39,227 nucleotides of DNA from an uncultured Candidatus Saccharimonas sp. (GTDB taxonomy: Bacteria > Patescibacteriota > Saccharimonadia > Saccharimonadales > AWTP1-31), in assembly GCA_943354005.1 (NCBI GenBank), contig CALRBE010000008.1, positions 1 through 39,227 on the forward strand. The letters run 5' to 3'. Numbering within the stretch: position 1 is the stretch's first letter; every line of letters starts with the position of its first letter. A model generated the notes under the pieces. It saw nothing but the letters and a program-made list of their open reading frames with translations. It was not told where the DNA came from and searched no databases. The translations under genes and the position numbers were made by a program. Positions 9,801-16,028 of this stretch are shown here, one piece after another.

Positions 9801-12792
<2,992 letters not shown>

Positions 12793-12813: not shown

Positions 12814-13542
12814 ATGTTCATGCGTCGACGATACTCTTTAAGAATGAACTGCTTTTCACCTCCTGTAATGCTGGCGACTGCAATCATTGAAATTAGCTTA
12901 CTAGTATATACCTTATATAAGTATGGTACGAAAAGCATAGGACGACTCGTTGCTTTAATGCTTCTATTACTGGCTATATTTCAAATTGCAGAATATAACA
13001 TTTGCGGCGGATTAGGATTAAACTCTCAATTTTGGTCACGTATAGGATTCATGGTGATTGCCTTACTGCCTCCACTCGGAATACATTTGAGCATGATGAT
13101 AGCAAAGAAGGACATAAAGTGGTTTAGATACACGGCATACCTTAGTGGTCTTATTTGGGTAGCAATATTCGGCTTAAGCGACAGAGCCTTTAGTGGATAT
13201 TCATGTGGCGGTAATTACATGATATTCCAGGTTGGAGAAAACTTTGGGAACGCCTATATGATCTACTACTACTTTTGGTTATTTGCAGCCATAGGGTTAT
13301 CTATATGGTTCATGATTAGAGCAACTAAAAGTCAGATGAAGAGCTTACTCCTGCTGATCATTGGATATCTCTTATTTATAGTACCTACATCTTTAGTAAA
13401 CGGCATTAATCCAACGACCATAGAAGGACTACCTTCTATCTTATGCGGCTTCGCAGTATTTTATGCTCTTGTTATAACATTTGGAATACTTCCCAATGAA
13501 CTTAAGTCTAAAAAACGTACAAAAAAGAAATTGACAAAGTAA
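12814..13542 (+). CDS. 7TM membrane protein (HisKA_7TM-like, stand-alone); start may be 12844
   Basis: About seven hydrophobic helices, no kinase domain. Confidence 0.6.
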   Translation: MFMRRRYSLRMNCFSPPVMLATAIIEISLLVYTLYKYGTKSIGRLVALMLLLLAIFQIAEYNICGGLGLNSQFWSRIGFMVIALLPPLGIHLSMMIAKKDIKWFRYTAYLSGLIWVAIFGLSDRAFSGYSCGGNYMIFQVGENFGNAYMIYYYFWLFAAIGLSIWFMIRATKSQMKSLLLLIIGYLLFIVPTSLVNGINPTTIEGLPSILCGFAVFYALVITFGILPNELKSKKRTKKKLTK

Positions 13543-13558
13543 TTAAACCGCTTATGAT
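13531..13558 (+). promoter_or_regulatory. sigma70 promoter of candidate sRNA 1
   Basis: TTGACA-16 bp-TATGAT; no + strand ORF follows. Confidence 0.7.
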
Positions 13559-13564
13559 AGAAGT

Positions 13565-13680
13565 ATCTCGTGCGCACCGCGGCGCGTTCCTTCAAAAACA
13601 AAAACACATGTGATTATCACCCGCCGCAGGGTGGGCGCGCACGAAAAAAATAAAATCCCGATTCGCTCGGGATTTTTGTT
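13565..13680 (+). ncRNA. Candidate structured small RNA 1 (family unknown)
   Basis: GC-rich island; tcgtgcgc(13568-75) pairs with gcgcacga(13637-44); inner hairpin caccc/gggtg; A-rich loop; own promoter and terminator. Confidence 0.65.
13652..13680. terminator. Bidirectional intrinsic terminator
   Basis: aaaatcccga-ttcgc-tcgggatttt between convergent transcription units. Confidence 0.85.
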
Positions 13681-13715
13681 ATTTCTTCCTACTTGGGGCA
13701 ACTAAGAAACTATTA

Positions 13716-14204
13716 CTAATCTTGAATTATGACTTTCTCGTTTTCGTTATTGGGCTCTTCAAAAATAGCTATTCTTTTATCCAGAATATCAGGAGTAATT
13801 ATAAAATTATTTCCTTTTTCAATATCTGCTCGACGGTTTAATCTCTCCAACAGCAAAGCTCTACTGGCCTTAAGGTATATTAATTGCATTTCAGCACCAT
13901 TACTTTCAACGAGATCTCTAAAATACTCCCGATCCCTCTTTTTCCGTACGCCGAAATCAAGTACGACCGATTGACCATTTCTTATATTCTCAACGATTTT
14001 CGATTTTATTATTTCCATAACGTTTGATTTATATTCATTACGTTTCTCAGTAGGGTAGTCAATACCAGCTACTCCATATCGTTTGATCATCTCATCGTCA
14101 ATCGAGAGAGATAGTGCTCCTTGTTCATCTACAATTTTTTTTGCATACGTTGTTTTCCCTGAACCGGGTAGTCCGCACAATAAATAAACGATCGCATGTT
14201 TCAT
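13716..14204 (-). CDS. AAA_33-type P-loop kinase-like protein
   Basis: LLCGLPGSGKTT Walker A, SIDD, SVVLD. Confidence 0.85.
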   Translation of the reverse strand: MKHAIVYLLCGLPGSGKTTYAKKIVDEQGALSLSIDDEMIKRYGVAGIDYPTEKRNEYKSNVMEIIKSKIVENIRNGQSVVLDFGVRKKRDREYFRDLVESNGAEMQLIYLKASRALLLERLNRRADIEKGNNFIITPDILDKRIAIFEEPNNENEKVIIQD

Positions 14205-14212
14205 ATGTATAT

Positions 14213-14860
14213 CTATTTTTGAATTAATGGTTTTTTACCAATGTAACGTACTAAGTTATGTATGCCCATAGCACTATCTTTATAAGTTTCACCGTTCTCA
14301 TCTGCGACAACTGTATTAAATCTTTGCGTAAATTCATTAACTGTAGTTTTACTAAAAAAGCGTTTCGTTGATTTGCCAATTTTGAAATAGTCTTTCTCAA
14401 TCATCTCGCCAGTTTTGTATTCAGGGTCATTCACTGAGTTTGCTAGAAGTGCAAGTGTACCGCCAGGTTTAAGGATCCGGTAGATTTCATTAAAAATATT
14501 AGCGGTAGTCTCATGATCAAAATAATGCAGTGAAAGATGTGAGTAAACTACATCAAAAGAATCAGCCTGAAAGGGCAGCTTTTTTCTTAGATCAACCTTT
14601 TTAATTTTAATGTCGACTGAGTTTGATGTTGCTTTTTCCTTTGCTAGTTCCAAAGCGCTATCTTCAATGTCTGTAGCAGTAACGTTATAGTCACGTTCTG
14701 CAAAATAGCAGCTGTCTTGCGCTTGACCTGCGCCTAAATCTAAAACCATTCCTTTTGCAGGAAAATAATCTAAAGCTTGTTCTGCAAAAATCGATGCTTT
14801 ATTAATCCACTCCTGATTTTTGTATGTGCTATGTAGATCTGACCAAACGCTTTCACTCAT
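14213..14860 (-). CDS. Class I SAM-dependent methyltransferase
   Basis: VLDLGAGQA, LPFQADSFDVVYS, RILKPGG. Confidence 0.9.
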   Translation of the reverse strand: MSESVWSDLHSTYKNQEWINKASIFAEQALDYFPAKGMVLDLGAGQAQDSCYFAERDYNVTATDIEDSALELAKEKATSNSVDIKIKKVDLRKKLPFQADSFDVVYSHLSLHYFDHETTANIFNEIYRILKPGGTLALLANSVNDPEYKTGEMIEKDYFKIGKSTKRFFSKTTVNEFTQRFNTVVADENGETYKDSAMGIHNLVRYIGKKPLIQK

Positions 14861-14935: not shown

Positions 14936-15012
14936 TGGTGGAGCCACGGGGACTCAAACCCCGGACCTCTTCGCTGCCAGCGAAGCGCTCTAATCAACTG
15001 AGCTACGGCCCC
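14936..15012 (-). tRNA. tRNA-Ala(GGC)
   Basis: Reverse complement ggggccgtagctcagttgattagagcgcttcgctGGCagcgaag...ggctccacca; G3:U70 pair present. Confidence 0.95.
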
Positions 15013-15092
15013 ACGTAGTAGTAGATAGTATAACAAAGTTTATTATTTGTAATAACCGTGAGCGTCGCACAGATTTAGGGTACAATAGAGTC

Positions 15093-16028
15093 ATGGCTAA
15101 AAAATCAACTACCAAATCACAAGAAAATGTAACTTTAACAGATACAACCCCATTTATTATTAAGCATAAAACAGCAACAACAATTATTGGAGCAGTGCTC
15201 TTAGTTATTATCTCCTCAACAATTTGGATCAGACAGGTCTATTATAGTCCTGAGCTAGTGTTTAATGCGATGATTGAGAATAACTTGTCCACTAACGGAG
15301 TAACTCGCACGCGTATTACTGAACAAGAAGGTGCAAAAAGGGAAGACATCGAGCAAGTTAGTTTTGTCCCTGAAGCAGCTGTCCGCACGCTTCAGACTAT
15401 TAATCAAAAAACTGAAAATGGTAAAAACACAATCGTTACTGAGAGTATAGGTACTCGAGATAATGACTATAGCCAATTTATTAAAATCGATGTTACTGAA
15501 AAAGACGAATCTGGAAAGAAACTTAACTACGCAACTGTAGAGCGACAGTGGGGCAAGTCTGATGCCAAAGAACAACCAGCTCAGATTTTCCGCGGTACTA
15601 CATTGAGCCCAATACCATTTGCAAATCTTGATCAGTCAGCACGTAAAAAAATTATAGCTCTCATGAAGGAAAGCAAGGCATACGATGTCCAATACGCAGG
15701 AGTCAAGAGCGTCAAGATTAAAGGTGAAGATGCACTAGCGTTTCCTGTTAAGATAAATAGCGAAAAATATGTAGGAGTACTAAAAGAGATTGCTAAGTAT
15801 ATAGGAATTAAGAATACTGATGACTTGAATCCTGCAGATTTTAAAGACCAACCTCCAATTGAGGTTACGATTACAGTTGGCAAGCTTTCACGACAAATCT
15901 TAGAAGTTACTTATACAGCTGGCCAGAAAGAAACTTACAGTTCATATGGACTTAGTGAGCCTATTAAATTGCCGAAAACAACAATTTCATTGAACGCTTT
16001 GCTACAAAAGGCTGAAGAGATAAGATAG
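15093..16028 (+). CDS. Membrane-anchored exported hypothetical protein
   Basis: Single N-terminal TM helix, then a hydrophilic beta-rich domain. Confidence 0.7.
   Translation: MAKKSTTKSQENVTLTDTTPFIIKHKTATTIIGAVLLVIISSTIWIRQVYYSPELVFNAMIENNLSTNGVTRTRITEQEGAKREDIEQVSFVPEAAVRTLQTINQKTENGKNTIVTESIGTRDNDYSQFIKIDVTEKDESGKKLNYATVERQWGKSDAKEQPAQIFRGTTLSPIPFANLDQSARKKIIALMKESKAYDVQYAGVKSVKIKGEDALAFPVKINSEKYVGVLKEIAKYIGIKNTDDLNPADFKDQPPIEVTITVGKLSRQILEVTYTAGQKETYSSYGLSEPIKLPKTTISLNALLQKAEEIR

Follow-up and report, generated by a model that had tools for sequence, protein, structure and literature searches.

The stretch of DNA analyzed here, referred to as the window, comprises 39,227 nucleotides (nt) of contig CALRBE010000008.1 from an uncultured Candidatus Saccharimonas sp. 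of the order Saccharimonadales. Its + strand encodes, between position 13565 and approximately position 13684, a small structured RNA that belongs to a new family and has a gene of its own. The gene occupies a gap of 173 nt between two convergent genes, one at 12814-13542 on the + strand and the other at 13716-14204 on the − strand. A first-pass annotation had proposed a stand-alone stable RNA at this site, and the proposal is supported by a promoter conserved among relatives, a terminator that follows the core, two covarying helices, and heterogeneous downstream genes. Read 5′ to 3′, the gap contains TTGACA, TATGAT, UCGUGCGC, a G+C-rich 5′ part, an A/C-rich stretch, CACCCGCCGCAGGGUGGGC, GCGCACGA, a run of A, and a hairpin followed by a run of T.

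Two covarying helices form the conserved fold

A single copy of the element is present in its own 752-kb genome, and a BLAST comparison with 40 relatives, one of the checks proposed in the first-pass annotation, returned approximately 24 real homologues with 72 to 96% identity. The first alignment (A1) comprised 23 homologues; locus L022 of genome G036, in which the 5′ half is missing, was left out. Model R1 was made from helices P1 and P2 of this alignment, and a second covariance model, R2, was rebuilt from 100 homologues. Six near-duplicate loci were exchanged for six weaker ones before alignment A3, also of 100 homologues, was made.

P1 closes the RNA by pairing UCGUGCGC (13568-13575) with GCGCACGA (13637-13644), the perfectly complementary 8-bp helix that the first-pass annotation had recognized, and P2 pairs GCGGCG (13579-13584) with CGCCGC (13622-13627). 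In A3, whose fitting to a covariance model favors the structure, standard pairs fill 98.8% of the 1390 P1 and P2 cells (98.6% in P1 and 99.2% in P2). Both sides change in 13 of the 14 pairs (seven of eight in P1, six of six in P2), with 134 compensatory cells. On each of five measures, all 500 shuffles fell short of the observed value, and slid pairing registers were only 7 to 71% paired, with covariation scores of 0.004 to 0.126 versus 0.355 observed. These data indicate that the secondary structure is conserved among relatives, on which the first-pass proposal depended, with compensatory changes beyond those of shuffles and shifted registers. The first MAFFT alignment already contained a C-G to U-A exchange in 8 of 23 sequences. 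Across the family, P1 changes from UCGUGCGC/GCGCACGA to UCGGGCGU/CACGCCCGA or ACGGGUGU/CACACCCGA, and P2 changes from GCGGCG/CGCCGC to GCGACG/CGUCGC, GGCUCU/AGAGCC, or GCCUUA/UAAGGC. Furthermore, a freshwater-sediment DNA run (X16) contains a relative in which C>T at 13575 is accompanied by G>A at 13637. The two positions form the two sides of the top P1 pair, and the double substitution is therefore a natural compensatory change. Both helices also appear in the thermodynamic centroid predicted for the window's RNA.

The helices also report the strand. G-U wobbles fit the + strand only (for example, seven GU at pair 3/221 and 11 UG at pair 8/216); on the other strand they would be A-C mismatches, which favors a + strand transcript. 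Moreover, antisense matches to the model scored 21 to 26 bits, compared to 29 to 93 bits for sense matches.

The first-pass annotation had also described a hairpin of CACCC (13618-13622) with GGGTG (13629-13633) around GCCGCA. The two segments are complementary as claimed; however, they overlap P2, so that the two helices cannot coexist, and it is P2, not this hairpin, that belongs to the conserved fold. Approximately one-fourth of the rows lack the CACC partner, 26 of 100 leave the fifth pair unpaired, and GGUG never varies, so covariation cannot support the hairpin. Judging from the aligned sequences, pairing of CACC with GGUG could form an alternative, exclusive fold in roughly three-fourths of the members. 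Other candidates were rejected as well. An alternative from RNAalifold, CCCGCC with GGUGGG, was paired in 87.8% of cells and failed where P2 has another sequence, and a 3-bp extension of P2 (GUG with CAC) was paired in only 69.9%. An H-type pseudoknot combining P2 with CACC/GGUG was judged sterically implausible by reasoning, not computation, with 0 to 2 nt available to span a 6-bp helix.

In base composition, the site is G+C richer than the neighboring DNA, as the first-pass annotation had noticed: G+C content is 0.50 to 0.525 in 80-nt windows over 13580-13699 versus 0.26 to 0.41 alongside, and that of the 77-nt core is 0.60, with 0.39 to 0.41 for the genome. Nonetheless, the single-sequence signals at the RNA gene are modest. 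Single-sequence scans saw two promoter-like sites versus 4.4 expected by chance and three terminator-like sites versus 0.9 expected, and the + strand fold has an energy of −40.9 kcal/mol (z = −2.9). What raises the gene above chance is conservation, namely covariation and a promoter at a fixed distance from P1, as described below.

The internal loop carries an invariant sequence

P1 and P2 are separated by an asymmetric internal loop. Its 5′ side is a linker (ACC in the window, 13576-13578) whose sequence varies among homologues, as does its length (1 to 9 nt); G is not one of the four commonest letters given for the linker columns. The 3′ side, A-GGGUGGG-C (13628-13636), contains the invariant core of the family, GGUGGG (13630-13635). 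In the 100 homologues, the six columns of this core are 100, 100, 100, 100, 96, and 100% conserved, while the preceding G is conserved in 85% and the following C in 94%. GGUGGG is kept even where the P2 sequence is wholly different and the surroundings have changed. In general, an invariant loop between covarying helices is typical of contact sites for a protein, a ligand, or an invariant RNA.

The terminal loop (13585-13621) is G-poor and variable in length and contains two A-rich family motifs, RAAAYAAAMAY and AAAACAAAAA. In the window's genus, the first motif is kept (13594-13605 in the window's RNA, matching the family consensus), and AAAACAAAAA has shrunk to the loop of a small GUGA/UCAC hairpin (GUGA-UUA-UCAC, 13610-13620). 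An extra hairpin is present in the loop of some members (L075, L076, L082 to L084, L096, and L113). Core lengths of the 100 homologues range from 64 to 143 nt, with a median of 75, and fall into the three classes modulo 3 evenly (36, 34, and 30); thus, no reading frame is kept, and the element is not coding.

The RNA has its own promoter and terminator

The first-pass annotation had claimed a promoter pointing into the gap, and this claim held. The promoter spans 13531-13558 on the + strand, with TTGACA at 13531-13536, a 16-nt spacer, and TATGAT at 13553-13558, and is of the sigma-70 type and near consensus, with 11 of 12 positions matching. Its −35 box lies inside the last codons of the upstream gene, whose stop codon ends at 13542. 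To evaluate conservation, TTGACA-N16-18-TATAAT was searched with at least 9 of 12 matches and with its end 8 to 14 nt before P1, and the reverse complement of the same 60 nt served as the control. Such a promoter was kept in 91 of the 99 homologues with enough flanking sequence, compared to 7 of 99 in the control. Since the −10 box stands 8 to 14 nt before P1 in these 91 homologues, we infer a 5′ end 1 to 4 nt ahead of P1. In the window, the promoter geometry predicts a transcription start at 13564-13566, 6 to 8 nt past the −10 box, and thus near position 13565, as the first-pass annotation had predicted.

At the other end, an intrinsic terminator spans 13652-13684 on the + strand and consists of a stem-loop (13652-13676) followed by a U run; a scan of both strands confirmed the hairpin and T run annotated previously. 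Because this hairpin scores on both strands, it would also serve the convergent − strand gene. In relatives, either a terminator hairpin with a U run lies 3′ of the core or P1 with a U run takes its place. In a number of divergent homologues (for example, L102, L107 to L110, L114, L116, and L118), GC and a U run come directly after P1, with no separate hairpin, so that P1 itself is the intrinsic terminator. Thus, the RNA has a promoter and a terminator of its own that are conserved in position, as expected of a stand-alone small RNA gene. The arrangement is also that of type I small RNAs derived from a 3′ untranslated region (3′ UTR), in that the −35 box precedes the upstream stop codon and the terminator is shared; the upstream mRNA would accordingly end at the terminator of the RNA.

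The family is confined to one order

The distribution of the RNA was surveyed in 151 genomes of the order Saccharimonadales. R1 matched 94 of the 151, nearly always with exactly one copy, and R2 matched 103, including 90 of the 131 good-quality genomes; both tallies include one unpublished genome (G057) whose sequence was not fetched. In a sample of the phylum, the RNA was found in all seven genomes of the same order and in none of 144 genomes of other orders. In a sample of the class, it was found in 19 of 23 genomes of the same order and in 1 of 58 genomes of other orders; the single match outside the order (G337, 31 bits) had no promoter, terminator, or ligA nearby and was treated as chance. 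Divergent forms of 103 to 127 nt with larger loop insertions lie 3′ of ligA in L140, L143, L148, L155, L158, and L171. These long forms scored only 26 to 41 bits, which implies that the current model does not capture the full breadth of the family. In public metagenome contigs, a strict two-ended pattern had an estimated 290 or so matches; viral contigs had none.

The RNA usually follows ligA but has no conserved downstream gene

The conserved upstream neighbor of the RNA is ligA, encoding NAD-dependent DNA ligase (10723-12792, + strand; Pfam DNA_ligase_aden, OB, ZBD, HHH, and BRCT). In 45 of 78 ligA loci, the RNA lies 3′ of ligA and on its strand, and R2 at an E value of up to 0.001 located it in 6 more of the remaining 33, some of which end at a contig edge. 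Open reading frames (ORFs) around the RNA were called crudely, from stop to stop with at least 90 amino acids, in 39 loci. The upstream ORF was co-oriented with the RNA in all 39 and ended 17 to 74 nt before it in 38. In 13 of the 39 loci, an ORF of a size similar to that in the window (237 to 271 amino acids) lies between ligA and the RNA; these ORFs resemble that of the window in size and place. One family of the order had a ligA match in none of its four RNA loci, for which at most 1.5 kb of upstream sequence was available (180 nt in one). The linkage to ligA may be historical rather than functional.

The downstream feature shared the strand of the RNA in 20 of the 39 loci and lay on the other strand in 18; one locus had no such feature. 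Thirty-two of the 37 downstream ORFs were scanned and belonged to unrelated families (cytochrome b5-like, beta-helix, MgsA, WhiB, CorA, DUF4396, subtilase, UvrB, and others) or to none. A cis-regulatory leader has a consistent co-oriented downstream gene, and none was found here. Since the downstream gene varies in both identity and direction, the RNA is not an mRNA leader, in agreement with the first-pass annotation.

The RNA matches no known family

Covariance-model searches with Rfam 15 (4227 models), a further check proposed in the first-pass annotation, matched no known family to the element. At the gathering score, only three tRNAs were found in the window. Over 13450-13760 with E values of up to 10, the output consisted of chance-level terminator look-alikes, none of which matched the element, and the loci of 20 relatives yielded tRNAs only at E values of up to 1. 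No described riboswitch class was found at the element at either the gathering score or permissive settings of Rfam 15; this result covers the NAD+ classes to the extent that they are represented in Rfam. RNase P RNA, transfer-messenger RNA (tmRNA), and 5S rRNA are all located elsewhere in the genome.

Small signal recognition particle (SRP) RNA (RF00169, family cut-off of 40 bits) was not found at 13450-13760 or in the whole genome at E values of up to 10, and it exceeded the cut-off in none of 41 genomes, comprising that of the window and 40 relatives. A single weak match (22.5 bits) was obtained in G026, whose copy of the new RNA is on another contig. PF02978, PF00448, and TIGR00064 had no real match in the window's genome, which therefore shows no SRP54 GTPase, M domain, or FtsY. 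Six-frame motif scans returned only translation-type GTPases and an ABC transporter, as judged by P-loop motifs and sizes. No SRP54 domain exceeded the cut-off in 21 relatives, and only one did so among 121 genomes of the phylum. The RNA is not SRP RNA, given the absence of Ffh and FtsY. A passage of one published study reports that SRP subunits are absent in many bacteria of the candidate phyla radiation (PMC8080830). The absence of SRP thus appears to be already known, and the breadth seen here is striking. As for 6S RNA, RF00013 had no match at the site or in the genome, and the 77-nt core cannot form the fold of approximately 180 nt with its large central bubble.

Full-text literature searches, supplementary files not included, found no earlier description of the RNA, and the passages considered of a paper on Saccharibacteria genetics do not mention it (PMC10633639).

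Stand-alone structured small RNAs are a known kind of bacterial element, among which this RNA, with its unusual invariant loop, constitutes a new family. Among enterobacterial type I 3′-UTR-derived small RNAs with an ORF-internal promoter are DapZ and MicL, which pair with their targets in an Hfq-dependent manner through an accessible seed. The new RNA shares with them a promoter that overlaps the end of the upstream coding sequence, a shared terminator, and an arrangement conserved with the parent gene. Unlike in DapZ and MicL, its ends are locked in a G+C-rich helix, its motif lies in an internal loop, and Hfq was not found; the likeness drawn here is one of layout. It also resembles 4.5S SRP RNA in its similar size, paired ends, single copy, own promoter, and conservation over a large clade. 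In SRP RNA, however, conserved internal loops flank a short terminal loop, whereas the terminal loop of the new RNA is long and A-rich, the SRP RNA model does not match, and Ffh and FtsY are absent. Like orphan structured motifs and riboswitch aptamers, the RNA combines covarying helices with invariant junction nucleotides and was found by covariation alone; it differs in that it is bounded by a promoter and a terminator of its own and precedes no conserved gene, and thus is not a cis-regulatory leader.

A further parallel concerns G-rich loops that read tRNA 3′ ends, such as the GGU of loop L15 in RNase P RNA and the UGGN of the T-box bulge. GGUGGG resembles these in being rich in G, invariant, and placed between two helices in an internal loop or bulge, and by sequence logic only it is complementary to UCCACC, the 3′ end of tRNAs that start with G1-G2 and have A73. 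Unlike the T-box, the RNA has no specifier-like element, and six pairs would require opening of the acceptor stem.

Candidate pairing targets of the invariant loop

Sites complementary to the loop were located in the window's genome. CCCACCC occurs 16 times, and so does its reverse-complement word, GGGTGGG; on inspection, no CCCACCC site stood out beside a gene start. One of the sites lies in 23S rRNA (G000:C1:126423-126429, − strand), where CCCACCCU is complementary to AGGGUGGG of the RNA. Genome G044 has GGGUGAG in its RNA and an unchanged 23S site; there is no compensation, and pairing with 23S rRNA is not supported in this single case, as three other GGGUGAG genomes and a control genome gave no 23S match. 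The 3′ end of 16S rRNA was rejected as a target: it reads ...GGAUUACCUCCUUUCU and has no good complementarity to the RNA.

Possible functions of the RNA

Our preferred explanation, to which we give about half of our confidence, is that this new stand-alone RNA is a stable molecule that works in trans, with its invariant loop exposed to a conserved partner. The rigid helices P1 and P2 would display GGGUGGG to a partner in the cell, which would be a protein more readily than an mRNA, and the RNA would then be a component of a ribonucleoprotein or a decoy. The A-rich loop could provide a second contact or a tertiary dock. A protein is favored because invariant junction nucleotides between covarying helices usually mark protein, ligand, or tertiary contacts and because the motif, if it were a seed, would need a target that is invariant across some 70 families. 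A bolder reading, in which a lineage-specific housekeeping RNA of the Saccharibacteria docks GGUGGG on an invariant RNA end, with the ...UCCACC(A) 3′ end of tRNAs as the candidate, seems unlikely to us. On that reading, the RNA would correspond to the CCA-reading loops of RNase P RNA and T-box leaders but stand free and act in trans, and it might sense or protect tRNA ends in an organism reliant on its host for nucleotides.

Several observations weigh against the explanation that we prefer. No gene for an RNA-binding protein is present among the conserved neighbors, and Hfq was not found, which speaks against base-pairing as well. The only metatranscriptome with part of the stretch has no contig over 13338-14506; this run contained 7% of the sampled words, with contigs at 13006-13247, 14517-14558, and 14999-15267, and is neutral as to expression of the predicted transcript. 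Approximately one-third of the sampled genomes of the order, including some single-contig genomes, gave no match; the RNA is either not universal or diverged beyond the model. By energy alone, the − strand folds better than the + strand (−53.4 kcal/mol; z = −6.3). Finally, an invariant single-stranded motif fits a base-pairing seed equally well.

Such a base-pairing function is a serious, though less likely, alternative: the RNA would be a regulatory small RNA of the 3′-UTR-derived type, with GGGUGGG, the A-rich loop, or both acting as a seed against mRNAs or another RNA. The promoter inside the end of the upstream gene, the co-orientation of the upstream ORF in 39 of 39 loci, the single-stranded and conserved motifs, and the 16 CCCACCC sites, including the one in 23S rRNA, are consistent with it. 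These sites are no more numerous than those of GGGTGGG, however, none is notable at a gene start, the G044 substitution is not compensated in 23S rRNA (a single case), and a seed that is 96 to 100% conserved over some 70 families needs an equally invariant target. The combination of covarying helices with invariant loop nucleotides is also the usual signature of an aptamer, and the RNA might bind a small molecule or an ion, either as an orphan riboswitch-like sensor acting in trans or to control read-through into the downstream gene. The order of promoter, fold, and terminator, with P1 itself as the terminator stem in divergent members, would suit such a device; so would the GGUG/CACC alternative, which allows two exclusive folds in roughly three-fourths of the members, and the adjoining ligA uses NAD+. 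We nonetheless regard an aptamer as improbable: the downstream gene is conserved in neither identity nor direction, the terminator does not overlap the fold in the window's group, and neither an Rfam riboswitch match nor the gene context suggests a ligand.

About as unlikely is that the element has no function of its own and serves in cis as an elaborate terminator or stabilizer at the 3′ end of the ligA message, or of a message of ligA and the seven-transmembrane (7TM) protein gene that follows it. The constant co-orientation with a nearby upstream gene, the ligA synteny, and the divergent members in which P1 with its U run is the only terminator would agree with this. A strong promoter of its own at a conserved distance would not, nor would the family that keeps the RNA with a ligA match in none of four loci (at most 1.5 kb upstream), and termination needs neither an invariant loop of 6 to 7 nt nor A-rich motifs. 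There is very little to be said for a highly divergent housekeeping RNA, be it SRP (4.5S), 6S, or Y RNA. The single copy, the wide conservation, the paired ends, and a size near that of 4.5S RNA invite the comparison, and the small SRP RNA and 6S models find nothing else in the genome; for SRP and 6S RNA, however, the identity is largely refuted by the lack of a model match, the absence of SRP proteins, and the short core. Equally slight is the chance that the site is not a + strand RNA at all and instead encodes a − strand RNA or a small peptide or acts at the DNA level. The lower folding energy of the − strand and two overlapping small ORFs (13552-13701, − strand, 49 amino acids; 13610-13705, + strand, 31 amino acids) point that way; against it, wobbles, promoter, and terminator all fit the + strand, the antisense model scores are low, no frame is kept, and the element is single-copy in its genome and absent from viral contigs.

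Significance for the Saccharibacteria

To our knowledge, no branch of the candidate phyla radiation is better studied than the Saccharibacteria, and no other is routinely cultivated; we know of almost nothing reported on the noncoding RNAs of this group. A strong promoter, covarying helices, and a motif 96 to 100% conserved over approximately 70 families point to a lineage-specific function under strong selection. R2 is a ready covariance model for annotating these genomes, and the RNA is a small, well-defined target for genetics; passages of a published study describe natural transformation of cultivated Saccharibacteria (PMC10633639). Should a conserved protein or an RNA end turn out to be the partner, the RNA would represent a new ribonucleoprotein in bacterial cell biology, and if the RNA proves to be an ordinary regulator, it would still be among the first described for the phylum.

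Genes flanking the RNA in the window

The gene immediately upstream of the RNA (12814-13542, + strand), whose last codons contain the −35 box, encodes a membrane protein of 242 amino acids. Its sole match is to the seven-transmembrane N-terminal region of histidine kinases (Pfam HisKA_7TM, 31 bits), and it has no kinase domain. The convergent gene 3′ of the RNA (13716-14204, − strand) encodes an AAA_33 kinase-like protein (Pfam) of 162 amino acids and is not a conserved neighbor. It belongs to a tandem at 13716-14860 on the − strand, in which this small AAA_33/KTI12-like kinase is accompanied by a class I S-adenosylmethionine (SAM) methyltransferase of 215 amino acids; according to the downstream ORF scan, the tandem is not kept beside the RNA in relatives. 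In 9 of the 39 loci, the next feature after the RNA is tRNA-Ala, in either orientation (L010, L031, L033, L034, L042, L049, L051, L056, and L059). The ancestral gene order was probably ligA, the RNA, and tRNA-Ala. The window itself has a tRNA-Ala (GGC) at 14936-15012 on the − strand, 1.3 kb downstream of the RNA.

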